In this document: piece after piece, positions 33,200-59,658 of the stretch
Layout: every line of letters starts with the position of its first letter
How positions within the stretch are numbered: the stretch's first letter is position 1
From: Kiritimatiellia bacterium
Lineage (GTDB): Bacteria > Verrucomicrobiota > Kiritimatiellia > RFP12 > UBA1067
Reading direction: 5' to 3'
Assembly: GCA_033812795.1 (NCBI GenBank)
Contig: JAPXSY010000001.1
Location: forward strand, 2,282-66,281
Length of the DNA stretch: 64,000 nucleotides
Made by a program: the position numbers and the translations under genes
The notes under the pieces: generated by a model
What the model was told of the DNA's origin: nothing
Seen by the model: the letters and a program-made list of their open reading frames with translations, nothing else
The model's database searches: none

Positions 33200-33242
33200 T
33201 TTGTCTCTCACTTGATCAACCCCCATTCTTGCGCGAAGCTTT

Positions 33243-34967: not shown

Positions 34968-34971
34968 TCCC

Positions 34972-39045: not shown

Positions 39046-39069
39046 CGAAAGCCCTCGTCTTCTTTAACC

Positions 39070-41232: not shown

Positions 41233-41242
41233 CGGAAAACCC

Positions 41243-43267
41243 CTAGCGGAAAAGCACCATGGTACCACGTCCGCTTGGAATCCGCACGAAGACCGTGTTG
41301 TTCTCCCTAATCAGTCTTGTGCCTAATTCAGGAAACGGCAGAATCGCATGAGCGTTCAAGCCTTCGATGTCGATGCTGGACTTACTGTGCTTCCGATTCC
41401 AGAATCCACCCTGGTCGTAGAGGAGCGGCACCATGAGCGTCGTCTGCGGACGCTCTCCCGACGCCAGCACCACTTCAAACACGGCGTTGTCATAAAGCTC
41501 CACGTTATGATTGCTGCCCGCCACGTTCTGAAACGGCGCGGTTTCATACCCGGCATCCGGCACAACATAGCGCAGGCGCAACGGATGCTCCATCTCCGCA
41601 CCGTCCAGTCCGAGCGCCACGCCTGGGTACGGATCCGCGGTCGAGCTCACTTTCGCGCTCGTCACCTTGAAGAGCGGCTGCGCACCGCGGAATTCAAGCG
41701 CGCAGTTCGGACAGTTCGTAAACGGATAAAGAATACCTTCAGACGACCAGTTCCGTGAAAACGAACCCGACTTCACCACGGTCGTGTTCGACACGCAGAA
41801 CACGGAGTTCGAACTGCCGTTCTCAAACCGCAAACCATCGCACCAGGAAGCCAGGTTCACCTCGCCGCCAGTCACCGTCACGCAATTGTCCCGTCCCGCA
41901 AAGCTCACCGTTCCCGTCACCGTACCGCCTGTCACCCACGCGGCATTGTTTGTCCCGTCCATCACCAATTTCGCCAGACTCACGCCACCCGTAATTTCCA
42001 CGCGGTTGGACATGTTGCCCGTTGTGATCGTGGCCGCGTTCTGGATGCCGGAAGAAAGCCGGTACACGTTATCCATGCCACGCACGGAAACCGACTTGTC
42101 CGGTCCCGTGCCGCCACAGATTTCGTACACGTTCCCCGTTCCTGTCAAGTGCACGCCGTTATTACCCAGCGTCAACGTGCCGCCCGCGTTTTCGAATCGG
42201 TTGCTTTGTCCTTCAAGGAACAAGCCGCCACTGCCCCAGCCATCCATTTTCACCGTACTGCCTTCCATACGGAACACGTCCCAGGCACCCCGCATCGACA
42301 CGCGGCTCAACGTGAGAGTCCCCGACGTCCCCGTCACGTCGACTCTGTTGGAATATGATTGGTTCGGATTCACCGTGGATCCAAAATTAAGTCCACGATT
42401 CGTGTTGTAGACACTGATCGTGGCATTATGGAAAATCGCGCGGTTGCGAACCGCCAGTCCGTTGTAAGCGCCTGATGAGTATTGTGTTTCAGCAGGTTGC
42501 GCGTTGCCAAATGTGATCACAAACAACCCCAATGTTCCGTTGGTGATCGCCAGCGTACAGTCGGTTGCCTTGTAGAATTTGAAACCCCGGCCGACATGCG
42601 CTGTGGACGATGAGCCGCCATTGACCAGCACCGTGCCGCCATCGCGAATCAGGAATGTGTTGCCCGTACCTGAAATGTGTGAATATTCGGAATAGCCAGC
42701 CGTTTCCAAAAGTCCCCCATTCCGCACATCCAGTAGACATCCGGCCAGCGTTGGATCATTCGCAAAAAACACGTATTTATCGTTCACGGCCACGACATTT
42801 GTACTGCCGTCAATCACGAGCGAGGAGTTGTTCTTGTTGAGCACAAAGGCTTTGTTCTGCGGTTGGTTCAGAAACACGCCGTTCGTAAAAGTCACGGACG
42901 AATCCTCACCCACGGCGAAAGATGTGATGTTCGAGATCGTCCCGTTCTGAAACGTCGCCGAACCGCCCGTCACGGAGAACGCATTCGTGACACCCAGCGC
43001 GTGACCGCCCAGATTGAGCAAAAAGTCGGAAAGACCGCTGACCGTGAAGTCGCTGATCCACATCTCGCTCGAGAGCGTCCAGCCGTCAGCGGGGACAGTC
43101 CCCGTGGCGTCGATCAGCGCCGAATCATCGACCCCGGGTTTCGCGCCCCCACTCCAGTTAGTGTCCGTCGCGAGATCACCGTCCGTCGCGCCCGTATAGT
43201 TCACCGTTGCGGCTGAAAGCCCAGAAACCGCCAACCCCGCCAGCCAGCACAAGACACTCTTTTTCAT
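41243..43267 (-). CDS. Secreted Gly/Thr/Asn-rich beta-helical surface protein (autotransporter-associated beta-strand-repeat-like)
   Basis: Signal peptide MKKSVLCWLAGLAVSGLSAA followed by NYTGATDGDLATDTNWSGGAKPG; repetitive G/T/N/S-rich beta-strand repeats throughout. Confidence 0.75.
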   Translation of the reverse strand: MKKSVLCWLAGLAVSGLSAATVNYTGATDGDLATDTNWSGGAKPGVDDSALIDATGTVPADGWTLSSEMWISDFTVSGLSDFLLNLGGHALGVTNAFSVTGGSATFQNGTISNITSFAVGEDSSVTFTNGVFLNQPQNKAFVLNKNNSSLVIDGSTNVVAVNDKYVFFANDPTLAGCLLDVRNGGLLETAGYSEYSHISGTGNTFLIRDGGTVLVNGGSSSTAHVGRGFKFYKATDCTLAITNGTLGLFVITFGNAQPAETQYSSGAYNGLAVRNRAIFHNATISVYNTNRGLNFGSTVNPNQSYSNRVDVTGTSGTLTLSRVSMRGAWDVFRMEGSTVKMDGWGSGGLFLEGQSNRFENAGGTLTLGNNGVHLTGTGNVYEICGGTGPDKSVSVRGMDNVYRLSSGIQNAATITTGNMSNRVEITGGVSLAKLVMDGTNNAAWVTGGTVTGTVSFAGRDNCVTVTGGEVNLASWCDGLRFENGSSNSVFCVSNTTVVKSGSFSRNWSSEGILYPFTNCPNCALEFRGAQPLFKVTSAKVSSTADPYPGVALGLDGAEMEHPLRLRYVVPDAGYETAPFQNVAGSNHNVELYDNAVFEVVLASGERPQTTLMVPLLYDQGGFWNRKHSKSSIDIEGLNAHAILPFPELGTRLIRENNTVFVRIPSGRGTMVLFR

Positions 43268-43923
43268 ACCAACCCCCTCTTGCCTCAAATACTTGACCGT
43301 TAAACTGCGTCAGATCGTAGCATAACCGACGAGAAACCTCCACGTTAACTTTCTCCGTCATTTGTAATCGGTTCGTGACAGGGGGATGCGAGTTTAGTGC
43401 GTGGTTTGTGTGTGCGCAGTCGGGAGCGCGGGCGTCTTCCGCGCTACGCGCGGATTTAGGATTTAGCCTGCCGCACGGCTTCGCCGCGAAAAAACCTTGG
43501 AATAAGTTTAGGACATGGTTTCCGACAGATTCGCTTCGGCGGGGAGAAATCCATGATTAACATGATGTTGTTCAATCCTGAAAATCCTGTCATCCTGTCA
43601 ATTTGTAGGCAAGGAGTTAGGAGTTTTTTCACTTCGACATTCTGAGTTCGGCGTCGGGCGTTCGGCGTTCAAAGGCGGCGGCGTGAAACGCCGCCCGGAC
43701 GAGCAGACGCTCGTCCCTCCCATCCTGCGGCAAAACAAAAAAATCTGCGCAATCTGCAAATCTGCGGATAAAACCAGCAGCCTCAAGACACGTTGTTGCG
43801 GGCAAGGACGCCCACGCTCCCTTCTCACTGCTCCCCTTTTCACCAGAAACGCATGACCTTCGCACAGCCCTGTCACGGACCGATAGCCCGTCGTTTCGCC
43901 CGTTTCAAAACGGAATTACCCGA

Positions 43924-46296
43924 TCAATCGCTCACCTTGCCGCTCGACTTCTCTTCGGCGGCGTATTCATCTTCGCTCGGCTCCCGTCCGACGGCCGGCG
44001 CCGCAGGGAACGACGCGGCGGGCAGGATGTCAACCGGATCCAGACCGTAGACAAAGACGGGTTCGCCGTCGAGCGCGATCTCGAACTTCCCGTCCTTGAC
44101 CGCCGCCGGCCGTTCGCGGCCGATCATGTCGAAGACGCGCACCGCGCCCGCTGTTTTGAACGCATAGGGCTTCGTGCGGTGCCAGTGCCGCACCCACGGA
44201 TCCTTGTGCCGGAAAAGCGCGTCGCGGTAGACGCCCTTGGGCAGTTCGCGCTGCCAAAGTTTGTACAGCATGCCGCCTTCGTTCCGGTCGAAGAGGACCG
44301 CCAGCCGCCCGCGGGGCGTGTCGAAGACGAATGCGCGCAGGGTATCCGTGCGGTTTGTGCCGGCTCCCTTCTCACCGAGAAACTTCGCGCCGTCCAGATG
44401 CTCGCATGTCGCCGCATAGCTGAGAAGGGACGGCTTAGGCGAGTCGTCGCGCATCAGAAGCCCGAAGTCGTACTCGGCGTTCACCGTCGTCTGCCCGCTC
44501 GGGTGCGCGAGCGGATAGCCGTGCGGATCTTGGCTCGTGCCTTGGTGAAGCTTGTAGAACATCATGTTCTTGACGTTCGGCTCGACGGATGCGATGACGA
44601 GCGACAGGAGCGTGTTCTCGGTCGCCTGGCGCAGCGAATCCTTCCAGCCGTCGTTCGGATGCGTCGCCGCATAGCATTCGGTCATGTGGATTTCCTTGTC
44701 TGGGTAACCGAGCTCGGCGAAGCGGGCGCGGGCACGCTGGATAATGCCGCGGTATACCCAACCGCCGTGCGTCACATCGGCCGTATAATAGCCGCGCCCG
44801 GGGTGAAGCGTCAGCCCGTCCACGAGGTCAAAGACCCCCTCATCCTTCATGATCCGCATCATGTGCGCGGAATAGTCCGGCTGGATGCCGAAGGTGATGA
44901 TCTTGACGTGTCCGAGTCCTTCCGCCGCGAGCCGGGCACGGATGACCTTGAGCCAACTCACGTAGCATTTGACAAGCCGCGTCTGTTCCTCGTGCGTCTT
45001 GTGCCAACCGACTTCGTTGCCGAATTCGAAATAAGGGTTCCCCCGCTCCTTGATGCGGCCGACGATCTCCTTCTCGATGATCTTGACGTGCTTCGGATTC
45101 TGCGGATCGAACATCTCCGGCGGCGCGTGACGGGAGGCGTAGGCGGTGATGCCATAGTTTGTCCGGAAATGGTTGTTGTCGCCGTAGCGGAGGATCGACA
45201 CGCCGAGACGTTCCATCAGCCGCTCGGCTTCGGGCGTTTCGGGATAGGACGCCATCGCCGCGATCGACGTGTCGCGATGCGTGAACCGGTGCGGCGGCAA
45301 CACGGCAACATTCATCCGCGCGAAGCCATCCTCGCGCTCGCCCTCCCCGACCGTCGACTCGATGAACCAGATGCCGCGTGCGCCCTCTTCCACGGCCGGC
45401 AATGCATAGTCCCTGACGAACGGCACGCCGATTTTGAACTCGAACCTCTCGGACTGATCGAAAACGACCTTGCCGTCGAAGTCCCGCGCCACCGTCCGTA
45501 CTGTCCGCCAGCCATCGATTAGCGGTTTGACCGTAAGCCGGAACTTCGGCGCACCGCTCTCGAACAGGTTGAACGGGCGCTCCGTCGCAAGCGCGATCAC
45601 AAACGGCCGCCCGTCCACCTGTGCCGCGGCGCATTGCGCATCCTCGGAGTCGACGCCCGTCACGAACTCAAGCCGTCCGTGATAGACGCCGTTCGTTGAC
45701 GTGCGGGGGAACCCCGGACACTCCGTCCGCGCGCCCGACCAGCCGGTGTTCCGGCACCAGAAGACCTGACCGGACTTCGCGCGATACGGCTTAACGTTCA
45801 TGCTCTTGACCTCGAACGGCACCCCGGGATCATACCACCCTTCCGCCACCGCCGGCTTGCAACGTTGCCAATAGCCGCACTTCGTCACTTGCTGGCTCCG
45901 CCCCGTGTCATTCAGGCGGAAGACCTCGACCATCTGTCCGCCGCTCCTGAAGCACGGCGGGATTTCCGAGACGAAATCCACGGCGAAACCATGTCCCGTC
46001 AGGTACGCTTCCGCCGAAAACGGAAAGTTCGTGCCGCTGGCATTTGTGATCTCGTAGGCGATCCGCAGACGGTTATCCGACGTTCGCTCCGCCGACTTCG
46101 GCACAGCGCACGGCGTCGACCACACGAACGGAACCTTCCCGACCGCAAGGATGTCGGTTCCCGTCTTGTCCGCAATAACCAGTCGGCCGTCGGCAAAGCG
46201 CAATGAACACAGATCATCCGAAAGCCGCGGCGCGTCGCTCGCCGAAAGCGTCCCCGCAGCCCAGATAACCGCCAGCAGCGTCCACCTCGTCTTCAT
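43924..46296 (-). CDS. Secreted clan GH-A (TIM barrel) glycoside hydrolase, paralog B
   Basis: Signal peptide MKTRWTLLAVIWAAGTLSA and FEFGNEVGW acid/base motif; clear collinearity with 39070..41232. Confidence 0.8.
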   Translation of the reverse strand: MKTRWTLLAVIWAAGTLSASDAPRLSDDLCSLRFADGRLVIADKTGTDILAVGKVPFVWSTPCAVPKSAERTSDNRLRIAYEITNASGTNFPFSAEAYLTGHGFAVDFVSEIPPCFRSGGQMVEVFRLNDTGRSQQVTKCGYWQRCKPAVAEGWYDPGVPFEVKSMNVKPYRAKSGQVFWCRNTGWSGARTECPGFPRTSTNGVYHGRLEFVTGVDSEDAQCAAAQVDGRPFVIALATERPFNLFESGAPKFRLTVKPLIDGWRTVRTVARDFDGKVVFDQSERFEFKIGVPFVRDYALPAVEEGARGIWFIESTVGEGEREDGFARMNVAVLPPHRFTHRDTSIAAMASYPETPEAERLMERLGVSILRYGDNNHFRTNYGITAYASRHAPPEMFDPQNPKHVKIIEKEIVGRIKERGNPYFEFGNEVGWHKTHEEQTRLVKCYVSWLKVIRARLAAEGLGHVKIITFGIQPDYSAHMMRIMKDEGVFDLVDGLTLHPGRGYYTADVTHGGWVYRGIIQRARARFAELGYPDKEIHMTECYAATHPNDGWKDSLRQATENTLLSLVIASVEPNVKNMMFYKLHQGTSQDPHGYPLAHPSGQTTVNAEYDFGLLMRDDSPKPSLLSYAATCEHLDGAKFLGEKGAGTNRTDTLRAFVFDTPRGRLAVLFDRNEGGMLYKLWQRELPKGVYRDALFRHKDPWVRHWHRTKPYAFKTAGAVRVFDMIGRERPAAVKDGKFEIALDGEPVFVYGLDPVDILPAASFPAAPAVGREPSEDEYAAEEKSSGKVSD

Positions 46297-46396: not shown

Positions 46397-48175
46397 TCAA
46401 CGGATCGTCAGCACACTCCCGCTCGGCGGCGGTTTCGCGTAGATCGTCTTCCCCTTGTCCCAGACAAGGGTCCAGCTCGGGGGCAGGATGGCGCTTGCAT
46501 TGAGCTGGTCAACGACGGTTTGGGACATATCCAGCCACCCTCCCGCCGTGTAGAAGAGCGGCACCGGCTCTGTCCCCTTGTAAGCGGAACCATCAATTTC
46601 AAATACGGTATTACCATAAAGCGTTGCCGTTCGATTCACGACCTGGTTCTGCATCGGCGCGGCAGCATAGCCCTGTTCGGGGATGACGAACTTGAAGTGC
46701 ACGGGATCCAGAAGCGGCTGTCCGCTCGCCGTACCGAGGACCCAGGCCTTCCAATTCGGCGTGGAGACACAACGCATCAGCGGGTTTGTGCCACGGAATT
46801 CAATCGCGGCGTTCGGGCTGTTCGTCCAGTTGAAGGCATCCACATTGCCGCTGCCGACGCAGACGCGCCCGTTCATCGTGTAGGTCGCATTCGAAATGAC
46901 CAATCGGCCGTTCGGCTTCTCTGCAAAGGAAATCACGCTCCCGTCACCTGGCGTATAGTACTCCGTGCCGTCCTTCAGGACAAAAACGTTGTTCGTGCCG
47001 CCAAGGACGACCGCATTCTGGCCGGCGTTGTTCGTCCAGGCGGCCGCCAGTTCACAAAGGCAGTCCTTAGAAGCTGCACCGAATGTCAGCACCCCGTTCG
47101 CACGCTTCGCCCCGATGGAAAAGTATCCGTTCGTGCCGCTGAAGGTCAGGCTCTTGTCCATCGTGCCGTCCACGAACTCGTAGCGATTGGAAAAGCCCCC
47201 GATGGTCACGCCGTAGGGCGCCGAGCAGGTACCGCCCGTCTGACGGATCAGGTTCGGTCCATTTCCTCCCATTGTCAACGTTCCTTTGTTTCACGTCACC
47301 AGCAGGCCGTCCGACAGGAGCAACCGGTTGTACCGGCCATTGACCTGGCAGCTTCCCGATGACAGCTCGCCCCCCAGCACTTCAACCCGGTTCGAGACGC
47401 CATTCATCACCACCGGAGGCGAGGCCTTGGCCGTGTCCTGAATCCGGAGAAGATCCCAGGCGCCGTTCATGTCAAAGGTCGAGAAGCCGCTGGCAACACT
47501 TGACCCGGAAACGACCATCTCATTGGAAACCGAATACCCGGACCGCCATTCAAAATACCGCCGCCCCGTATATTGGGGTGTCGCCTGCGGCACATTCATG
47601 GAAAAGGTCGAATCATGCACCAGCAGACGACACCCTGTCGCCTTCTTGCTGTCCAGACCGAACCTGAAGACGAACGCCGTCATCGTCGCATTCGTCAGGG
47701 CGATCGTGCAGTCCTTGGCATTGCCGAAACCAGACCCCCAATTGTATTCCGTGATGTCGCTGAGCAGGAGCGAACCGCCTTCCACCCGGATGTTCGACCC
47801 CGTGCCGCCGAGTTTGAAGAACCCCCTGTTCGGTGTTGTCACATGGTAGGTTCCCCCGTTGACGATATCGAGGGACAGGCCCGTCACGCCCAATGAGTTG
47901 CACAGGCCACCCGCCCGCCCTGCCTGAGTGGCCGTCTCCTCGAGCCATCCACCATCAATGAGAATCGACACGTCATTCTTTGTGACCAGATCGTCGGACG
48001 CAGTCGATATGACCCTCGTGCCGGCATTGAGGATCTTCACCTCATCTCCCTGCGCCAACGAGCCCAGCAGCGATGCGACCTCGTTCGTTCCCGAGTCATA
48101 GATGTACGTCGCCGCGCGGACGATCCCAGGGACAATCGACAGGCTCACAGCCAACATGACCATTCGTTTTTTCAT
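46397..48175 (-). pseudogene. Beta-helical surface protein paralog interrupted by an in-frame TGA (47291..47293)
   Basis: ORFs 47291..48175 and 46397..47278 are in the same frame. The first resembles the N-terminal half of the 41243..43267 protein (SNRVEVLGGE vs SNRVEITGG; CTIALTNATMTAFVFRFG vs CTLAITNGTLGLFVITFG). The second resembles its C-terminal half (AAIEFRGTNPLMRCV vs CALEFRGAQPLFKV; NASAILPP vs NAHAILPFP). TGA is a normal stop here (gyrA ends in TGA). Confidence 0.55.
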
Positions 48176-48290: not shown

Positions 48291-49922
48291 TCATCGACAG
48301 AGTATCACGCCAATCGCCCACATGAACACGAAAATCGCTAATGAGACGAGAAAGGTTAAAAGGACGCCACGGCCGACATCGCGGCCGTCGGCACGGACGA
48401 GCGAACGGAAGCGGGCGATCGTCTCCGGCTTCTCGGGACGCGTCAGGAACGTCGCCGCAAGCCACACCACCGTCGTCACGCCGATCGTCAGTAAAAGGCG
48501 TTTCCAGAAAACGAGCGGTACCGCGAATGACGGCCAGACAAGCTGGAAGAAACACGCGCAGAGGATCGACGCCCCCATCGCGGCGATTTCCGTCCAGGCG
48601 TTGATGCGCATCCAGAACCACCGCAGGAGAAACACCGCGCCGGTGCCCGCGCCGACCATCACCATCAGGTCGAATCCTGCCTTCGCGTCCGCAATGAACG
48701 GCACCAGCAGACAGCCCGCGAGCATCAGCCCAACCGAGGTCCAGCGCGCGACGCGGATCAGTTCCCGCCCGTCCGCCTGCGGACGCACGAACCGCACCCA
48801 CACATCGTTGGCAACGTAGTTCGCGCCCATCGAGAGATGCGCGGCGATCGTCGAGAACAAAGCCCCCATCAAGGACGCCGCAACGAGTCCGAGCCAGCCC
48901 GCCGGCACGAACTTGATCATCGCCGGATACGCCATATCGTTGCCGACGAGTGCAGGATCGACATCCGGAAACGCCGCGCGTATGGACGCAAGGTCGGGAA
49001 AGACAAGGATGGAGGCGAAGGCGGTGATATACCACGGCCACGGGCGGAGCGCGTACTGTACGATCTGCGCGAAAAGCGTCCCGCCGAGCGCGTGGTTCGG
49101 CGTCTTTGCCGTCAACATGCGTTGGACGATGTAACCGCCGCCGCCCGGCTCCGAACCCGAATACCACACGTTCCACCACTGAATCGCGACCGGCACGATG
49201 AAAACCGCAATGGCGGTGTCCAGATCATCGAATCGCGGCAGGAAGTCGAGCTTCGGACGGATCGCGGCGTTCTGCATCAGCGCCGCCCATCCGCCGACCT
49301 CAGGTTGCGATAACGCGAATGCGGTCACCGCCACCGCGCCGACCATGATCAACGTGAAAAGATAGAAGTCGGCGTAGATCGTTCCGCGGATGCCGCCGAT
49401 CATCGAATAGGCGATGCTGGCGACAGCCGTAACCGCGAGGATCGTCCAGACAGGCACACCGAAAAGAACGGCCCCCAGCTTCACCGCCCCGAGAAGAACG
49501 GTCGCCATCACGATCACGTTGTAGATGACGCCGAGATAAACGGCGCGGAAGGCGCGGAGAAACGCCGCCGGCTTCCCCGAATATCGCAATTCGTAGAACG
49601 CGATGTCCGTCGTCGCTCCCGACCGGTGCCAGAGCTTCGCATAGACGAAGACCGTGAGGACGCCGCCCGTGAGAAACGACCACCAAACCCAGTTGCCAGC
49701 GAGTCCATTTTCCCGAATTAACTGGGTGAACAGATTCGCCGAGTTGGTCGACGTCATCGCGGCCACCATCGAGATGCCGATCAACCACCAGGGCATTGAA
49801 CGCCCCGACTGGAAAAAGTCGGAAGATGTGTGCGCGCGACGCCGGTTGGCGAACGCCGGTATCGCGAGCAACACGACAAAAAACGCTACGGTCACCAACC
49901 AGTCTGCCAGTGCGAATCTCAT
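48291..49922 (-). CDS. Sodium:solute symporter family (SSF) transporter
   Basis: 13-14 TM helices; SSF-like segments (GRSMPWWLIGISMVAAMTSTNS, GGIRGTIYADF); the last gene of the operon. Confidence 0.85.
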   Translation of the reverse strand: MRFALADWLVTVAFFVVLLAIPAFANRRRAHTSSDFFQSGRSMPWWLIGISMVAAMTSTNSANLFTQLIRENGLAGNWVWWSFLTGGVLTVFVYAKLWHRSGATTDIAFYELRYSGKPAAFLRAFRAVYLGVIYNVIVMATVLLGAVKLGAVLFGVPVWTILAVTAVASIAYSMIGGIRGTIYADFYLFTLIMVGAVAVTAFALSQPEVGGWAALMQNAAIRPKLDFLPRFDDLDTAIAVFIVPVAIQWWNVWYSGSEPGGGGYIVQRMLTAKTPNHALGGTLFAQIVQYALRPWPWYITAFASILVFPDLASIRAAFPDVDPALVGNDMAYPAMIKFVPAGWLGLVAASLMGALFSTIAAHLSMGANYVANDVWVRFVRPQADGRELIRVARWTSVGLMLAGCLLVPFIADAKAGFDLMVMVGAGTGAVFLLRWFWMRINAWTEIAAMGASILCACFFQLVWPSFAVPLVFWKRLLLTIGVTTVVWLAATFLTRPEKPETIARFRSLVRADGRDVGRGVLLTFLVSLAIFVFMWAIGVILCR

Positions 49923-49931
49923 GACCCGTTG

Positions 49932-50897
49932 CTACTCCTGTCTAGCGTTCACGGATTCCGGTGCGAAGTCGTCGAGTTGGAACTTCCACTCGGGACGTGT
50001 ACGGAAGGGAGTCTTGAATGTTCTTTTCAGGACCCCCTTCTTCTCCAAATGGCAATAACATGCGACATCGCAGGCGCGTCCGCAGATTGAGCAGGTGTAG
50101 GAGTGCTGCGCCGGCGGATAAAAATAGATCGCGTCAAGGATCCGCTTCGCTTTCTCTGAATCGATCTCGGCCTCGCCCGCGATGATCGCAAGCCGGTCCT
50201 CGAAATCAGGGAAGGCCTCCGGCGGCATGAACGGATTCTTCGTGCCGTTCGCGCCGTTGTAATAGACGGCGCAACGCCACGGATCAACCTCGCCGGACTC
50301 TGGGTCAATACATTTGCCCGGACACCCCTTCACACATGCGCCGCACCTGTCGCAAAGATGCGGCGTCACCACCTGATCCGGCTCAAGTTCAGCATCCGTC
50401 AAGATGAAGCACGTCCGCTGCATCGGCCCGAAATCGTCCGTCAGGAGCGCACCGTGGAAGCCGCGTTCACCGAGTCCGCACCGCACCGCCGCATCCGTGA
50501 AGTCGAACTGCGGCTCCTCGACGCGTCCGCGCGCAATCGCGTCATAGGCGACTTCCGGGTTCATGCCATCCTCCGCCTCCATGATCGTCTGGTGGCGGCG
50601 TTGGGGCACGGCCGTGAAGCCCTTGGACTCGATCCGATTCGCCAGCCTCACAAGCGCGATCGGCATCACCGTCTCCTCCATGTTCTCGACGGACATCGTC
50701 GTATACTGGTAGTAGGTCGTTCCCTCCTCGGTACCGCGATAGCTACCGCGAAGGCACCGGAACGCCAAACCGATGACACTCTTCACCTGCGGATAGATCC
50801 TGAAAATCTTGTGATCCGCCGGGAACCGCGACGCAGGCGCGACGCCAACCAGATCCGCGCCGCATTCTTTAGCCAACTTCAGAAGTTCGTGCTTCAC
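49932..50897 (-). CDS. QueG/RdhA-superfamily Fe-S protein paralog 1 (epoxyqueuosine-reductase-like; two ferredoxin-type Cys motifs)
   Basis: N-terminus LKLAKECGADLVGVAPASRF resembles the QueG N-terminal region. Cys motifs are CDRCGACVKGCPGKC and CSICGRACDVACYC. It is 321 aa with no room for a C-terminal HEAT-like tRNA-binding region. Confidence 0.65.
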   Translation of the reverse strand: MKHELLKLAKECGADLVGVAPASRFPADHKIFRIYPQVKSVIGLAFRCLRGSYRGTEEGTTYYQYTTMSVENMEETVMPIALVRLANRIESKGFTAVPQRRHQTIMEAEDGMNPEVAYDAIARGRVEEPQFDFTDAAVRCGLGERGFHGALLTDDFGPMQRTCFILTDAELEPDQVVTPHLCDRCGACVKGCPGKCIDPESGEVDPWRCAVYYNGANGTKNPFMPPEAFPDFEDRLAIIAGEAEIDSEKAKRILDAIYFYPPAQHSYTCSICGRACDVACYCHLEKKGVLKRTFKTPFRTRPEWKFQLDDFAPESVNARQE

Positions 50898-51682
50898 AAC
50901 TTCACCCCCTTGATGTGCTCCCAGCAGGCGACGTCACACTTGCGTCCGCACAGGCACGCTTGATACCCCCACTGCGTTCGCGGCAACGAATAACCGCGTG
51001 CCTTGTTGTAATGCTCCCAGCACTTCCACGAGTCGAGTCCCTTCTCCACGTCGATGCATCCGGCATCGCACGCCTTCACGCAGGCATCACAGCCCGCGCA
51101 GAGATCGTCCGCGTACGGCGCGTTCGTCTCAAGCGGAGCGTCGGTGATGATGAAGGCATAGCGCATGAACGGACCGTACTCGCGATTGATGACGCGTCCG
51201 TACCTGCCGGGCATGCCGATGCCGCACGCCCGAGCGGCCTTGCCGAAGTCGATCATGACGTCCGGCGGCGGCTTGCCCGGCTCGACCGCTTCCGCATGGG
51301 CAAGCTCGTAGACGCCGATCATCTCGGGGTTCGCGGTCTTGTCGCCCTTGACGCGGAGGTTCGGCGTCGTCCGTTGCAGGCACGCGTCATAACCGGCGTC
51401 TTCAATGATCGAAGCCATCTTGAAGAGAAAAATATCGAAGTATTCCTCATCAATCGCTTTCACGCCGAGTGTCGTATACGCATAGAACTGCGATTCGTCC
51501 TTCATCGTCTTGTATAGACCCTTCGGAACGGGAATGCCAAAACCGATGATCGCCTGCGCCTTCGGGCAGACCTGCTTCGGATCGTGGCGCGGATCCTCTC
51601 CCTCGAACAGCTTCAGATCTCCGACGCCGAACATAGCCGCCCCGAGTTCACGCGCCACCTGCTCAATCGTTTCTCGATTCAT
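50894..51682 (-). CDS. QueG/RdhA-superfamily Fe-S protein paralog 2
   Basis: N-terminus EQVARELGAAMFGVGDL; Cys motifs CAGCDACVKACDAGC and CLCGRKCDVAC; 262 aa; ATGA start/stop overlap with paralog 1. Confidence 0.65.
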   Translation of the reverse strand: MNRETIEQVARELGAAMFGVGDLKLFEGEDPRHDPKQVCPKAQAIIGFGIPVPKGLYKTMKDESQFYAYTTLGVKAIDEEYFDIFLFKMASIIEDAGYDACLQRTTPNLRVKGDKTANPEMIGVYELAHAEAVEPGKPPPDVMIDFGKAARACGIGMPGRYGRVINREYGPFMRYAFIITDAPLETNAPYADDLCAGCDACVKACDAGCIDVEKGLDSWKCWEHYNKARGYSLPRTQWGYQACLCGRKCDVACWEHIKGVKL

Positions 51683-51701
51683 CTTCCCTCACCTCAACCC
51701 G

Positions 51702-52787
51702 TTACCTGTCCATTTTCCACGCCTTCGGACGTGTACGGAGCGGATTCTTAAACCGGCCGTGTAGACAGCCGCCCGGTTTCTCGAGCATCTCGACACAAGC
51801 GCGGATACAGCCGCCGCACTTGGCCATGTTGTAGCCGACCCAGCTCGGGAAGTACTTTGCCAACGCCCGGTAGACCTTCATGATCTCTTGTTCACTCGCA
51901 TCGGTTTTACCTGCGAACAGATCAAGGTCACCGTCCTTGTTTTCGTCCCAGACCTCTTTGGGAACGAACGGATTGTAGTAACGTCCGGCGTGAGTATAGA
52001 AGGCATAGCACTTCCACATGTCGATATCGCCCCACTCCATCTTGTAGTCGCCGATCGAAGCCGTACACTTCTTGCCAGATTTAATCTCAGGAATGCAATT
52101 CCCCGGGCACTCGCGCACACACGCCCCGCACCGGCGGCAGAGCGGCTTGCCGTTGTAGATCTCGTCATACTCGTCGAACTCAGCATCCGTGAACAGAAAC
52201 GCGACGCGCTGCAAGGGGCCGAACTCCGGCGTCAGCAGCATCTTCGACCACCCGATTTCGCCGAGACCGCAGGCAACCGCGCAGATGCGGAACTGGAACT
52301 GCAAGTCCGGCGGGACGTTCTCGCCCGGACGCGTCGCGCGGGTGAAGTCAACGGAACGGTGATGCGCCGTCGAATCCTTCGCGTTCTCACTCACCTCGAT
52401 CTGTTCCTCAGGAGAGAGCTTCGCGTCCTCCGATCCGTCCATATCGCTGACACATCCACGCGCGCCGGTGTTGCGGTAGACAAACGCCTCGTAGCCCGCG
52501 TCCTCGATCGCCTTGCCGACATGGTACAGGGTCGCCGGCGCAAGGATCTCGTTGATGCCGCCGTAGGCCATCGACGGATACTGGTAGAACTGCGTCCCCT
52601 CCTCAATGCCGCGCTGTACGCCGCGCGGGATACGAAAGACGAGACCAACCATCGATTTGCAGTTCGGGAACAGGAACGTCGGATTCATCTCGTCCGGCGC
52701 ATCGCTCATGCGCGAAATCGGCGCGATGCCGCAATTATCGGCGCCGGCCTTTTTGGCAATCTCCTTGATTCGTTTTGCTGAAAGCAT
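51702..52787 (-). CDS. QueG/RdhA-superfamily Fe-S protein paralog 3
   Basis: Start chosen at ATG 52787 with GGAGG SD 5 nt upstream (MLSAKRIKEIAKKAGADNCGIAP). Cys motifs are CRRCGACVRECPGNC and CGGCIRACVEM...GGC. The start is 1 nt after the upstream gene stop. Confidence 0.65.
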   Translation of the reverse strand: MLSAKRIKEIAKKAGADNCGIAPISRMSDAPDEMNPTFLFPNCKSMVGLVFRIPRGVQRGIEEGTQFYQYPSMAYGGINEILAPATLYHVGKAIEDAGYEAFVYRNTGARGCVSDMDGSEDAKLSPEEQIEVSENAKDSTAHHRSVDFTRATRPGENVPPDLQFQFRICAVACGLGEIGWSKMLLTPEFGPLQRVAFLFTDAEFDEYDEIYNGKPLCRRCGACVRECPGNCIPEIKSGKKCTASIGDYKMEWGDIDMWKCYAFYTHAGRYYNPFVPKEVWDENKDGDLDLFAGKTDASEQEIMKVYRALAKYFPSWVGYNMAKCGGCIRACVEMLEKPGGCLHGRFKNPLRTRPKAWKMDR

Positions 52788-52788
52788 G

Positions 52789-53646
52789 TTACCTCCAAAG
52801 TGCCGAATGATCGGGTTCGAGCAGCCCCTTGATCTCTCCGAGATGCGATCCGGTCGCATAGGACTCCAGGATACGGACAGGATGCGCGTTAATGCGCGTG
52901 GCGAGCTTCATCGCCGTGCAGAGCCCTTCGTACTTCGTCACGCTTTCCGGTTCAATCCAGTTCGTCCGTTCCATCCACTTCGCGCGGTTCTCCGGTTTGG
53001 CAAGCCACTCCCAGCACATTCCCCGGTACACGTACCCGTTATCCTTCTGTGCGATCTCCGTTTCGTGCGCGACAAGATTATCGTGGAACATGTGGGCCGA
53101 GCAGTGGTTGAGGCATCCGGAATTCGCAAGGATGAAGAGCTCCTTGCCGTAGGCATCGCACCACGTCTTCGCCGCGCGCACGGCATCGAGATCGCGGTTG
53201 AGTTCACGCTTCAGGTAGTATCCGTCAAAAACGTCAGCAAGATACTCCATGCCTTCGATCGTTCCGATCTCCATGTTCACCGATGCACGCGTCTTCAGCT
53301 CCGGGAAATTATCTTTCACGAACTTCGCGATAAGCGGAGAAGTCGTCGTCACGCCCTCAAGCGATCCATCCGCGGCAAAACGTTCCACGGTTTCGCCGAT
53401 ATGGGAAAAAAGCGACTTCGCAAGCGACTCGCCACCATAACAGGTCGCGTTGAAAAGGAGGTGCAGCGGCAATCCCGCTTCCGCCATCCGGCCGAGGTCG
53501 TCGAGCAGGCGGTCCTCCGACCTGATCACGGCACGCCCCGATGCCCAACCGGAAGCCGCGAAGTACACGTCGTGCATGACGTCCTTACGCGCGATAATCG
53601 CTTCGATCCACGCCGCATCATCCTGATACCCCACACTGAATTTCAT
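52789..53646 (-). CDS. Cys-containing hypothetical protein, tentatively peptidase-U32-family-like (RlhA/TrhP/UbiU-type fold)
   Basis: N-terminus MKFSVGYQDDAAWIEAIIARKDVMHDVYFAAS loosely follows the U32 N-terminal pattern (ELLAPAG...AAI.AGADAVY.G). Conserved Cys at ATCYGG, NSGCLNHCS and GMCW. It is the first gene of the operon. The family assignment is weak. Confidence 0.5.
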   Translation of the reverse strand: MKFSVGYQDDAAWIEAIIARKDVMHDVYFAASGWASGRAVIRSEDRLLDDLGRMAEAGLPLHLLFNATCYGGESLAKSLFSHIGETVERFAADGSLEGVTTTSPLIAKFVKDNFPELKTRASVNMEIGTIEGMEYLADVFDGYYLKRELNRDLDAVRAAKTWCDAYGKELFILANSGCLNHCSAHMFHDNLVAHETEIAQKDNGYVYRGMCWEWLAKPENRAKWMERTNWIEPESVTKYEGLCTAMKLATRINAHPVRILESYATGSHLGEIKGLLEPDHSALWR

Positions 53647-53758
53647 GTGTCTATCTTACCGCAATTCATCGACGTTCATTTACACAAATGCGCATTATAT
53701 TTTGCACTAAAGCGAATATGCGATTGTGCCAAATCAGGAATTTTGGTTGAATGCGGGT

Positions 53759-54937
53759 ATGAAACGGGCCTCCGCTGCATCCGGTATACCCAGAGTTCTG
53801 GTGACCATTCCGACGGCGAATTTCACGCACCGGAAAGTTTTGGAGGGCATTCTCGACTACGCCCGAATCAAGGGGCCTTGGCAGTTTCACCTCAATACCG
53901 GAGACATCGCGGTACAGGACATGAAACGGGTCGATAACTGGAAGTGCTCCGGCATCATTGCCTTGTCCTCAAACAAGGCTGTGCTGAGACGGCTCGTGCG
54001 GTTCCGCAAGCCGACGGTTTTCATCAATCCGCCGGACGCGGGGAACGTCCCGCCGCGCGGCTGCGTATTCGTCCGGCGCGACGACCGCAACCTCGGACGT
54101 GTCGCGGCGGAATACTTCATCTCCGGCGGTTTCCGATCCTTCGCCTTTGTCGGTGCCAGCCGTCCGGCGGCTTGGTCAGATGATCGGCGGGACGGATTTA
54201 CAACTCGGCTCGCACAAGAAGGCTTCACCTGCATCGACTACGGCTCCGTCACGCCGGAAGAGAGCGCGGACGCCGCCATTGAAGCGCCGCGGCTTTTAAC
54301 ATGGCTCAAGACGCTCCCGCGTCAGACCGCACTTTTTACCGTAAAAGACATCCGCGGGCAGCAGATATTATCCGCGTGCCTCGACGCCTCAATCCGCGTT
54401 CCGGAGGATCTCGCCGTGCTCTCGACGGATAACGACCCAGTCCTCTGCGACACGGTATCGCCGCCTTTGTCGTCGATTTCCCTGGATGGCGAAAATACCG
54501 GAAAACTATGCGCCGGAATCCTCGACGACCTGCTCCATGGGAAAAAAGTCGAACCTGTCGTCAGCATCATGTGCCCACGCATCATCACACGCCGATCCTC
54601 CGATGTAACCGCCGTCGAAGATCCGCTCCTCGCACGGGCGCTTGATTATGTCCGCGCCCATCTTGACGAACCCTTCCGAATCGGTAAACTCGCAAGCGAG
54701 ACGGGGATTTCGGTTCGTACGATCCAACTCAGGGCGCGCAAACAGTTCGGGCACCCCTTCCGTGAGGAAATTCGTCGGTTGCGTCTTGCCAAGGCCATTT
54801 CGCTTCTTTCCAACACAGATCTTCCGGCCGCCGACATCGCAGCGATGTGCGGGTTCTGTAGCGGAAGCCATCTCTCACGCGCTGTAAAGGACGCCTTCGG
54901 ATACCCGCCAAGCACATTCCGGCCGAAACCGACATGA
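53759..54937 (+). CDS. XylR-type regulator: periplasmic-binding-protein-like sugar-binding domain fused to AraC HTH
   Basis: N-terminal LacI/PBP-type fold (RVLVTIPTANFTHRKVLEGILDYARIKG...). C-terminal AraC HTH (LASETGISVRTIQLRARKQFG...AAMCGFCSGSHLSRAVKDAFGYPPSTFR). It is transcribed divergently from the operon across a 112-bp AT-rich gap. ATG 53759 was preferred over the GTG 53726 of the track. Confidence 0.8.
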   Translation: MKRASAASGIPRVLVTIPTANFTHRKVLEGILDYARIKGPWQFHLNTGDIAVQDMKRVDNWKCSGIIALSSNKAVLRRLVRFRKPTVFINPPDAGNVPPRGCVFVRRDDRNLGRVAAEYFISGGFRSFAFVGASRPAAWSDDRRDGFTTRLAQEGFTCIDYGSVTPEESADAAIEAPRLLTWLKTLPRQTALFTVKDIRGQQILSACLDASIRVPEDLAVLSTDNDPVLCDTVSPPLSSISLDGENTGKLCAGILDDLLHGKKVEPVVSIMCPRIITRRSSDVTAVEDPLLARALDYVRAHLDEPFRIGKLASETGISVRTIQLRARKQFGHPFREEIRRLRLAKAISLLSNTDLPAADIAAMCGFCSGSHLSRAVKDAFGYPPSTFRPKPT

Positions 54938-57737: not shown

Positions 57738-58553
57738 TCAATAGGCGACCAATCGGCGCACCGCTGTGGCGATATCGCGGACGCGCTGCTCACCCGCCTC
57801 GCGCTCGATGGCCACGGCACCCTCGTACCCGATCTCCTCCAGCACGTTCAGGAACGCGAAAGCATTGACCTGCCCTTCGCCCCACACGACTTCGCTCCCC
57901 CACGTGCCGGGCACAGTGGTTCGGATCGCATCCTTGATGTGAATGTGGCGGATCCAAGGCGCGAGGCGACGCAGCGCCGGAAGCGGCTCATCCTTGTTGT
58001 ACAGAATGAGATTAGCCGGATCGAAGTTCAAGAGCACATTCGGATGGTTCAGGGTCTCAACAAACCGCTGAAGCTCCTCGGCTGTTTCCTGTCCGGTCTC
58101 CATCAGTAGCGTCACGCCCGCCTCACCCGCCGAATCCCCCAGCGCGCGCACACGGTCATAGAATTTTTTAGCGTAGGCGTTGTCAGTGTGATCCAAGAAC
58201 CCCACGTGCATCATGATGTACTGCGAGCCGAGCGCAGCCGTGATCTGGGCCGCACGGGCGAACGCCTCCCCGCTCGCGGGCCAGTGCGCATCCGGCGCGA
58301 TCCCGCCGGTCACCTTGATCGTGTCCAACGTGCTGTAATCCTCATAGTCGTAATTCATCATGCCGGCCGTCACAGTCCAGCCCTGCTTTCGAACGGCATC
58401 AAGATACGCCTCGCCGTCCGGTGCCAGAGCCGGGGCGATCGCCAGATTGATATGCTCCAATCCCAGCGCGGTCATCACAGACCCGATCTCCTCCACGCTT
58501 TTTCTGAACGACCAACTGCACACGGCCACTGGCCATTTTCCGCACTTTAACAT
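57738..58553 (-). CDS. Sugar phosphate isomerase/epimerase (xylose-isomerase-like TIM barrel)
   Basis: Start taken at ATG 58553 (MLKCGKWPVAVCSWSF); the typical TIM-barrel metal-binding segments; the stop is 3 nt from the convergent HtrA stop. Confidence 0.8.
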   Translation of the reverse strand: MLKCGKWPVAVCSWSFRKSVEEIGSVMTALGLEHINLAIAPALAPDGEAYLDAVRKQGWTVTAGMMNYDYEDYSTLDTIKVTGGIAPDAHWPASGEAFARAAQITAALGSQYIMMHVGFLDHTDNAYAKKFYDRVRALGDSAGEAGVTLLMETGQETAEELQRFVETLNHPNVLLNFDPANLILYNKDEPLPALRRLAPWIRHIHIKDAIRTTVPGTWGSEVVWGEGQVNAFAFLNVLEEIGYEGAVAIEREAGEQRVRDIATAVRRLVAY

Positions 58554-58611
58554 GATCTTTCCTCCGCGGGTCCGGCGAACGGGCCCAATGTTTTCGCTTC
58601 TCTTTTTTCGC

Positions 58612-59658
58612 TTACTTTGCGAGGCGCACGGTTCTGCCCGTCCGGGCCGAACGTTTTTCAGCATCCACGATCCGCACGGAATCGCGCGACTGTTCCGGCG
58701 TGGTCACGCACGCGACCTTGCGGCCGCACAGCAGATCCATGAACCAGCGGATCTCGTACTCGTAGCCGTCGCCTTTCGGCAGTTTCGGCACGAACGCCTT
58801 TCCTTTGGCAGGATAGACGCAGAGCGGTTTCCCGCGTTTATCGTCCAGCACGACTACGGCCTTCTCGAACGTCACCACATACCCGGCCTCGAAGCCCAAC
58901 GTCGGCGCCATGGCCCAACTTGCCTCGGCCGTCACCGCCGCACCGCCCACATCGTACAGAGTGGAGATGTAGCGCATCGCCCCGTCTTTCGCAAAGTTAG
59001 CCCGGCTCGTCACCGCGCGCGGCATGCCGAACAAAAACTGAACGATATCCGTGTCATGGATGTGCAGATCCAGCGCCACGCCGCCGCTTTTCGACTCATC
59101 CATGAACCAGTTGACCCCTTTTTGCCAGCCCGGAGGCGCGCTGAAACGGTAGAAGGAGGCCGCGATGACTTTGCCGTACTTCCCGCTATCAATCAGATCC
59201 TTGAGATACACGTAACTCGGCCAGAAGCGCAGGCACTGGGCAATCATCAGCCGCGTACCCTTCGGCGCCTGTTTCGCGGCGCGCAGCATCACGCCGCAAT
59301 CAACCGCATTCAACGCCATGGGCTTTTCGCACAGCACGCTCACCCCGGCTTTCAGCGCCTTGACCGTGAACGGAACGTGTAACGGCGTCGGCAGGGTCAG
59401 CGAGATCACATCCGGGCGGGCCTCCTTCAACATCCGGTCGAAGTCGTCATAAATCACCGCATCCCCGTAATCCATCGAGGTGTCCGCACCCGCGACGTTC
59501 CCGCCCTGAACCGGAGCCGTGAACTGCGCCTGATTCTGATCGCACAACGCCACGATTTTCGCGTTCCGGATCTTTTTCCACTGCCCGTAATGCATGCGCC
59601 CCATAAACCCGAACCCCACGATGGCGACGCGTTTCTGAACCGGTTTCCGTTTAGCCAT
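58612..59658 (-). CDS. Gfo/Idh/MocA family oxidoreductase
   Basis: Rossmann motif RVAIVGFGFMGRMH; a cytoplasmic-type paralog with no Tat signal. Confidence 0.85.
   Translation of the reverse strand: MAKRKPVQKRVAIVGFGFMGRMHYGQWKKIRNAKIVALCDQNQAQFTAPVQGGNVAGADTSMDYGDAVIYDDFDRMLKEARPDVISLTLPTPLHVPFTVKALKAGVSVLCEKPMALNAVDCGVMLRAAKQAPKGTRLMIAQCLRFWPSYVYLKDLIDSGKYGKVIAASFYRFSAPPGWQKGVNWFMDESKSGGVALDLHIHDTDIVQFLFGMPRAVTSRANFAKDGAMRYISTLYDVGGAAVTAEASWAMAPTLGFEAGYVVTFEKAVVVLDDKRGKPLCVYPAKGKAFVPKLPKGDGYEYEIRWFMDLLCGRKVACVTTPEQSRDSVRIVDAEKRSARTGRTVRLAK

Follow-up and report, generated by a model that had tools for sequence, protein, structure and literature searches.

Which reaction could be carried out by three adjacent, short relatives of the epoxyqueuosine reductase QueG that are encoded together with a U32-fold protein, and would the substrate be an RNA at all? 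This question is raised by an operon in a stretch of 64,000 nucleotides from a Kiritimatiellia bacterium (assembly GCA_033812795.1, contig JAPXSY010000001.1, positions 2,282 to 66,281), hereafter the window. The operon comprises a four-gene cassette, here called g1 to g4, and a Na+/solute symporter (SSF) gene, and lies opposite a divergent regulator gene. The products of g2, g3 and g4 are paralogs which look like a separate branch of the RdhA/QueG fold and not like truncated QueG, the unit conserved across genomes is g1-g2-g3-g4 with an AraC-type regulator and not the five-gene operon, and we lean towards a redox enzyme for a carbohydrate-derived small molecule. The genes, in window coordinates, are as follows.

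52789-53646, minus strand: g1, U32-fold barrel protein, 285 amino acids (aa)
51702-52787, minus strand: g2, RdhA/QueG-like paralog, 361 aa
50894-51682, minus strand: g3, RdhA/QueG-like paralog, 262 aa
49932-50897, minus strand: g4, RdhA/QueG-like paralog, 321 aa, GTG start
48291-49922, minus strand: SSF symporter, 543 aa
53647-53725: control region between the divergent genes, 79 nt, or 112 nt with a regulator start at 53759
53726-54937, plus strand: divergent regulator, likely true start ATG at 53759, then 392 aa

Three paralogs of the RdhA/QueG fold

The products of g2, g3 and g4 are true paralogs with 30-34% mutual identity and BLASTP E-values of 2e-58 and 2e-41 (the latter for g3 against g4), and they carry the three N-terminal motifs quoted in the initial annotation. 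The hidden Markov model (HMM) of QueG, TIGR00276, gave 21.4, 51.0 and 36.5 bits for g2, g3 and g4 against a cut-off of 200 (E-values of 1e-4 for g2 and 1e-13 for g3), with model positions ~136-211 only being matched, and the HMM of reductive dehalogenases (RDH), TIGR02486, gave 37.3, 36.1 and 37.0 bits against a cut-off of 160 (2.7e-9 for g2 and 6.3e-9 for g3). No match of g2-g4 to Pfam QueG_DUF1730 was found at E<=1, and Pfam returned sub-threshold ferredoxin motifs only. In a sequence search of the PDB, g4 and the family profile matched the RDH 8q4h, PceA and QueG at 1e-9 to 1e-13, over a stretch that begins where the cobalamin-binding core ends and reaches into the first cluster. Moreover, the AlphaFold2 (AF2) model of g4, with a mean predicted local distance difference test (pLDDT) of 79, matched only QueG, PceA, RDH and NpRdhA in Foldseek, followed by MMACHC. 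As judged from the g4 model, the family is within the class III (RdhA/QueG) fold, equidistant from both known branches; the HMM and structure searches pointed to this superfamily and not to an unrelated, already characterized family.

The make-up of class III enzymes, a nitroreductase-like core and an eight-Cys ferredoxin module for two [4Fe-4S] clusters, is found here. Two ferredoxin-type CxxCxxCxxxC motifs had been assigned to each protein; one of them is canonical in each paralog, but the second site is non-canonical, Cx2-3Cx3C being complemented by one distant Cys. Within each orthologous group, the eight cluster Cys are ~100% conserved, and g3, the shortest and most divergent paralog, keeps all eight. 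QueG has a C-terminal HEAT-repeat domain of ~100 aa beyond the ferredoxin module (PMC4646009). Since the stretch beyond the last cluster Cys is only 30 residues long in g2, 11 in g3 and 41 in g4, this domain cannot be present, as the initial annotation had argued, and no HEAT or further domain appears in the AF2 model of g4. The description of the three proteins as truncated and QueG/RdhA-like holds for the superfamily, by HMM, PDB search and predicted fold, but not for the truncation, given that they look like a branch of their own. No further RdhA-like open reading frame (ORF) and no canonical queG occur within the 64-kb window.

Among the three, g2 is the most constrained subunit, with a mean column identity of 77%. 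It has further conserved Cys (C19, C173, C231 and C341) and a strongly conserved polar insertion at approximately residues 106-167. Being the most conserved, g2 is therefore the candidate and, on sequence grounds, the likely catalytic subunit.

As a separate observation, an invariant Cys in the CGLGE loop is shared by all three paralogs and all orthologues (g2 C173, codon 52269-52271; g3 C153, codon 51224-51226; g4 C140, codon 50478-50480, all in minus-strand genes). QueG and PceA carry Ala at this position, and the loop lines cluster I.

A U32-fold partner

The first gene had been read as encoding a Cys-rich protein with a weak U32-like N-terminus. Its AF2 model (pLDDT 88) has the U32 peptidase Mk0906 (5d88) as the best PDB match in Foldseek, with an E-value of 3.9e-11 and template modelling scores of 0.60/0.69, while other triosephosphate isomerase (TIM) barrels start at 1e-4, some seven orders of magnitude behind; the predicted fold of g1 is that of the U32 (beta/alpha)8 barrel. 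The Pfam Peptidase_U32 score, however, is 11.9 bits against a cut-off of 22.4 (E 0.14), and the four Cys in CX6CX15CX3C known from U32 oxidases (PMC11574389) are not found in g1, whose spacing is C...CX3CX28C. Profile comparison by hhalign with Escherichia coli UbiU and UbiV was not significant (E 0.11-0.15), and therefore the U32 link is one of fold. The protein is not Cys-rich, having only 6 Cys in total, though four of them (C69, C178, C182 and C211) are invariant among 27 homologues, as is the motif FHDNLVAHE, and g1 probably binds a [4Fe-4S] cluster. Clostridial g1 proteins have an extra C-terminal CX3CX2CX2C tail which the Kiritimatiellia protein lacks.

Two variant settings of g1 were seen. 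At L065:2766-5924, a homologue with 50% identity is fused in frame to a ~700-aa domain which by eye is right-handed beta-helix-like and has no Pfam match, with no g2-g4 nearby; it may be a real fusion or an assembly artefact. At L097:10001-10879 and L098:2067-2945, a homologue with 68% identity stands without any RdhA-like gene; AP_endonuc_2, rubredoxin and a 188-aa ORF lie before it, and the gene after it encodes a protein of 392 aa without a Pfam match.

Conservation of the cassette

Relatives of g1 are encoded in at least 579 stretches of the species-representative genomes that were scanned, and the locus counts given here refer to the best 80. These belong to Kiritimatiellia, Lentisphaerae and, chiefly, gut and rumen Clostridia (Oscillospiraceae, Christensenellaceae, Acutalibacteraceae and Lachnospiraceae). 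The order g1-g2-g3-g4 is complete and on one strand in 67 of the 80 loci, which extend over two phyla; in nine others a contig end interrupts the locus, and of the remaining four, two carry only g1 and two hold a partial or decayed set. Compared with the window proteins, the homologues show median identities of 50% (g1), 77% (g2), 47% (g3) and 63% (g4), and g2 is 66-92% identical to its orthologues in other phyla. The positional orthologues, with medians of 47-77%, are more alike than the paralogs are to each other, and the triplication therefore predates the spread across these lineages. In a metagenome protein collection, ~1800-2700 homologues were found for each of g1, g2 and g4, named only 'hypothetical', 'ferredoxin', 'QueG' or 'collagenase-like PrtC'; the existing labels 'epoxyqueuosine reductase QueG', 'collagenase-like PrtC protease' and 'ferredoxin' are probably wrong.

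Whether the cluster is conserved as a unit had been set as a test by the initial annotation. The answer differs by gene: g1-g4 and an AraC-type regulator stay together across genomes, but the symporter and the XylR-type regulator of the window do not. One locus, L016, is unique in having a g3-g4 spacer of 839 nt (L016:13043-13728) which holds several short tandem-repeat arrays with periods of 48, 20 and 15.

Relatives with three modules in one chain

A profile search of 1.84 billion cluster representatives yielded 6014 relatives with E<=1e-3, of which 171 reach E<=1e-30. Among the best 150 representatives, approximately 25 consist of one polypeptide of 725-813 aa that holds three RdhA/QueG-like modules in tandem (P0406, P0409, P0425 and ~20 others); the cluster motif persists in modules 1 and 3, and the cluster Cys have been lost from the middle one. 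The recurrence of a three-module arrangement in this branch argues that g2-g4 work as one assembly. Two loci of fused relatives (L100:7176-9560 and L101:8001-10442) lie in glycan clusters of the sugar-transport and polysaccharide-lyase types: the former contains a sugar ABC transporter, FAD_oxidored, an (alpha/alpha)6 protein, URO-D and a further RdhA-like gene, and the latter IclR, beta-helix lyase-like proteins and a sulfatase.

Operon layout, symporter and regulator

Coordinates and spacings were read again directly from the DNA, and the picture of five tightly packed minus-strand genes opposite a divergent regulator with a periplasmic-binding-protein (PBP) fold and an AraC domain stands. 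At the g1/g2 junction, TAA is followed by one base (c) and ATG, with GGAGG lying within g1; the g2/g3 gap is 19 nt and the g4/SSF gap is 9 nt. The 4-nt overlap of g3 and g4 at 50894-50897 reads GTGA and not ATGA, as earlier given, because the start codon of g4 is GTG. Gene callers predicted the same five genes and the regulator on six independent metagenome contigs, where the regulator start is placed 11 codons further in, for a protein of 392 aa. At NCBI, a protein identical to g1 is assigned to a Kiritimatiellia metagenome-assembled genome. The open frame of g2 reaches back as far as 52859, and the start at 52787 matches the homologue lengths of 356-363 aa.

The G+C content of the operon (0.57-0.60) is near the window average, and the control region at 53647-53725 is AT-rich relative to its surroundings. 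A scan with the sigma-70 consensus found no promoter-like site in this region, and the counts of the promoter and terminator scans were at the level of shuffled sequence; it is the gene arrangement that suggests a promoter there. A PADLOC run gave zero matches, and a role in anti-phage defence was rejected on that account.

The symporter passes the Pfam SSF profile with 93.4 bits against 22.8 (1.8e-26, residues 36-442; PF00474), as the initial annotation had held, and its closest PDB relatives are vSGLT (2xq2, 6.6e-28) and then SGLT1/2; by these matches, it is an SSF protein of the sugar-transporter type. The regulator combines Peripla_BP_3 (3.5e-34) with HTH_18 (5.6e-20), which bears out the XylR-type architecture, although the PBP1_XylR domain itself is weak (19.4 bits against a cut-off of 27). 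Its orthologues, with 46-63% identity, are divergent to g1 in L017, L019, L020 and L022, and the SSF gene adjoins the cassette only in Kiritimatiellia-type loci (L016, L017, L020, L022 and GCA_016648615). Both genes are found in some loci of this type within the Planctomycetes-Verrucomicrobia-Chlamydiae (PVC) group only, and the symporter gene is an accessory one.

Several further genes of the window were noted. Directly downstream of the SSF gene, two proteins of ~293 aa and one of 790 aa without Pfam matches are encoded on the minus strand (46397-48175 and 43924-46296); the 294-aa and 790-aa proteins have signal-peptide-like N-termini, and these genes also trail the operon on several near-identical metagenome contigs (L001, L005 and L006). 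At 30527-43288 (minus strand), there is a run of very large ORFs of 574-1357 aa, several with hydrophobic, signal-peptide-like N-termini, which resemble the surface or glycan-degrading proteins common in PVC bacteria. Slightly overlapping genes for AP_endonuc_2 (a xylose-isomerase-like TIM barrel) and Gfo/Idh/MocA lie at 57738-59658 (minus strand), 3-4 kb from the regulator; comparable genes are found repeatedly close to the cassette elsewhere, and any link to it would be tentative.

Neighbouring genes across loci

Clustering of neighbours over 78 loci gave the following recurrent genes.

AraC-type regulator (AraC_binding and HTH_18): 66 loci, divergent, ~100 nt upstream of g1
DUF5696: 19 loci, mostly directly after g4 on the same strand; closest PDB relative the GH129 alpha-GalNAc-ase NagBb, 8e-14
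Gfo/Idh/MocA protein of 420 aa: 16 loci, mostly directly after g4 on the same strand; closest PDB relative DgpA, 2.5e-16
Small cupin of ~110 aa: 20 loci, between g2 and g3 in most

DUF5696 and the Gfo/Idh/MocA gene occur together in none of the loci. The gene order in GCA_016648615 is SASA-MFS-SGL-SDR-UxuA-GH3-DUF5696-g1-g2-g3-g4-SSF. No tRNA-modification, queuosine or rdhB genes were found near the cassette across ~80 loci, which speaks against the thought that the paralogs might be a split but ordinary queG next to tRNA-modification genes. The link to carbohydrates is given by the AraC-family regulators, by the SGLT-type symporter in the window, and by the intracellular GH129-like glycosidase or DgpA-like 3-dehydrogenase elsewhere.

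In addition, a pair of genes resembling NfnA (NAD_binding_1 and DHODB_Fe-S_bind) and NfnB/GltD (Fer4_20 and Pyr_redox_2) lies directly upstream of g1-g4 on the same strand at L095:6674-8990 and L096:2613-4917, and is a plausible source of low-potential electrons. Found occasionally are also genes for Imp-YgjV and EamA membrane proteins, FAD_oxidored, a GDSL esterase, an (alpha/alpha)6 protein and a radical-SAM/SPASM protein of the 'metalloenzyme maturase' type.

The radical-SAM/SPASM gene (~310 aa) stands between g1 and g2 at L029:2099-3034, L045:10983-12011 and L048:10951-11877 (broken in L074). Within NCBIfam, it comes closest to 'tungsten cofactor oxidoreductase radical SAM maturase', with 235 bits against a cut-off of 380, and the insertion hints at a dedicated maturation step in some genomes. 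As for the cupin, an assignment to KdgF (uronate linearization) was considered and found unsupported, its best PDB relative being the uncharacterized CA_C3497 (3d0j) and its Pfam match weak.

Proposed function and alternatives

We consider it somewhat probable that g1-g4 form one cytoplasmic, substrate-inducible, multi-cluster redox enzyme which acts on an imported carbohydrate-derived small molecule and not on RNA. The substrate would be a glycoside, its sugar or its aglycone. The products of g2, g3 and g4 might assemble as a pseudo-trimer, by analogy with the relatives that hold three modules in one chain; g2 would be catalytic, and g3 and g4 might serve mainly as electron relay or scaffold. 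Low-potential electrons might be delivered by ferredoxin or an NfnAB-like module, and a two-electron reductive cleavage, for instance of a C-O bond, could then take place at a corrinoid or Fe-S site, similar to the epoxide reduction by QueG or the dehalogenation by RdhA, while g1 may bind or activate the substrate. The reductive chemistry and the use of a corrinoid by g2-g4 are thus suggestions drawn from their relatives. The idea of an inducible uptake pathway for a free small molecule, put forward in the initial annotation, agrees with the carbohydrate-type neighbours and with the lack of tRNA-modification genes near the cassette; a nucleoside-like substrate found no support. Sulfoquinovose, O-methyl sugars, cyclitols, unsaturated uronates and polyphenol aglycones were weighed as substrates, and none is favoured by the data.

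A narrower proposal, which we put forward tentatively and regard as possible, is that g2-g4 represent a third branch of the class III corrinoid/[4Fe-4S] enzymes, namely a (pseudo)trimeric reductase with a U32-fold Fe-S barrel that catalyzes a new B12-dependent reaction on glycoside-derived molecules in anaerobes of gut, rumen and digester. Such a reaction could be the reductive cleavage of a C-O or C-S bond, or a dehydroxylation, in a sugar or plant aglycone.

Several observations weigh against the reading as one reductive enzyme. The g1 gene is found without g2-g4 at L033, L065 and L097/L098, and the partnership is therefore not obligatory; the physical complex of g1-g4 itself we infer from synteny, translational coupling and the fusions in distant relatives. 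The D-Y-H motif and the catalytic Asp-130 of QueG are not kept as such in g2-g4: in an alignment that is of low confidence there, the segment equivalent to D-Y-H reads F/Y-Y-Q/A-Y-T/P, a Tyr that opens the long helix is kept (g2 Y70, g3 Y69, g4 Y63) but the Asp and His are not, and the Asp-130 column is E/E/R in g2/g3/g4. Class III enzymes lack a sequence motif diagnostic of B12 (PMC4646009), so that the sequence does not tell whether a corrinoid is bound, and an Rfam scan for a cobalamin or other riboswitch upstream of g1 in the window and in three Clostridia loci returned only tRNAs elsewhere. The characterized U32 enzymes are Fe-S-dependent hydroxylases (PMC11574389), and such oxidative enzymes sit awkwardly with a purely reductive scheme. 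Finally, 61 genes lying further downstream across the loci are heterogeneous, with no Pfam family in more than two loci, and therefore no pathway end-point emerges.

Of the alternatives, an oxygen-independent hydroxylase or oxidase fares best, though we hold it to be rather unlikely. Here g1 would be the catalyst, as in UbiU/V, TrhP and RlhA, with g2-g4 acting as a multi-cluster electron wire from or to it. The U32 fold with four invariant Cys and the hydroxylase activity of the characterized family would fit, the loci with g1 but not g2-g4 suggest a function of its own, and the cluster-free middle module of the fused relatives suits a scaffold role; yet g1 lacks the CX6CX15CX3C motif, falls under the Pfam U32 cut-off and has no significant profile match to UbiU/UbiV. 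Furthermore, the strongest constraint falls on g2 and not on g1 (77% against ~50% identity), the conserved polar insertion of g2 is typical of an active site, and three nitroreductase-like cores would be odd for a simple electron wire.

Unlikely as well, in our estimate, is a corrinoid-free version of the same architecture, in which the cores bind flavin or nothing and catalysis takes place at an Fe-S site. It gains from the missing riboswitch, from the extra invariant CGLGE-loop Cys in place of the Ala of QueG and PceA, and from the further conserved Cys of g2, which could hold another cluster, and the class III enzymes offer no B12 motif by which to test it; against this, the HMM-aligned region spans the loop that packs against the cobalamin and cluster I.

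Modification of tRNA or rRNA by a split or variant QueG with a TrhP/RlhA-like U32 enzyme is very improbable: QueG and the characterized U32 RNA hydroxylases do act on RNA bases, but g2-g4 have no HEAT tRNA-binding domain, reach 21-51 bits against 200 with the QueG HMM and lack a DUF1730 match, no RNA-modification genes lie nearby, the distribution is patchy and accessory, and the operons contain substrate-type AraC/XylR regulators, sugar symporters, glycosidases and sugar dehydrogenases. Respiratory or catabolic organohalide dehalogenases, suggested by the RdhA fold and the weak TIGR02486 matches, can hardly be credited in view of scores of 36-37 bits against a cut-off of 160, N-termini of g2-g4 which open directly with the conserved domain and carry no twin-arginine translocation (Tat) signal, the absence of an RdhB anchor gene, and a habitat and neighbours that indicate glycan fermenters.

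Significance of the cassette

A literature search found no published description of the g1-g4 cassette, in agreement with the earlier remark that the gene set is not a described pathway. The parts belong to known superfamilies, and there is a substantial chance of a new enzymatic function. To our knowledge, dehalogenation and the reduction of epoxyqueuosine are the two activities known among class III B12 enzymes. Further class III families, which would be hard to spot without a B12 motif, were predicted by those who described the QueG structure (PMC4646009), and the cassette is a concrete and very widespread candidate for one of them, with an unusual architecture of three paralogous subunits and a U32-fold partner and with an ecological setting in glycan-fermenting bacteria of gut, rumen and digester. 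Solving it could provide a new anaerobic reaction in the metabolism of dietary or host glycans or glycosides, a new corrinoid demand in gut communities, and a second type of chemistry for the U32 fold, which is poorly understood.

Comparison with known systems

QueG (TIGR00276; PDB 5d6s and 5d08) shares with g2-g4 the N-terminal 'AKxxGADxVG' strand-helix, a conserved Tyr at the presumed start of the long helix, and a cytoplasmic location. In contrast to QueG, which is one chain and belongs to queuosine metabolism, g2-g4 are three paralogous subunits in a carbohydrate context, have neither the HEAT domain nor the DYH/Asp-130 signature, and carry, in g2 and g4, a 60-residue insertion inside the second cluster motif.

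RdhA/PceA and NpRdhA (TIGR02486; PDB 4uqu, 8q4h and 6zxu) differ in having a Tat signal, RdhB or an NpRdhA-type reductase fusion, and no small membrane-anchor gene or reductase fusion occurs in the operon. Moreover, g2-g4 score far under the dehalogenase cut-off and form a trio with a U32-fold partner.

The U32 hydroxylases UbiU/UbiV, TrhP and RlhA, together with 5d88, resemble g1 in the TIM-barrel fold and the four conserved Cys, and the 'LANSGCxxxC' of g1 follows the same strand as 'FGSLCx6C' of UbiU in a weak alignment. However, the Cys of g1 are spaced differently, the U32 C-terminal domain is absent, and g1 is partnered by RdhA-fold proteins and not by a second U32 protein or UbiT.

As for the DgpA-type systems of glycoside 3-oxidation and C-glycoside cleavage, they include DgpB/C-type lyase subunits which the cassettes lack, and have no counterpart of the Fe-S proteins described here. 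The likeness to these systems lies in the DgpA-like oxidoreductase, whose gene, present in 16 loci, mostly comes directly after the cassette.

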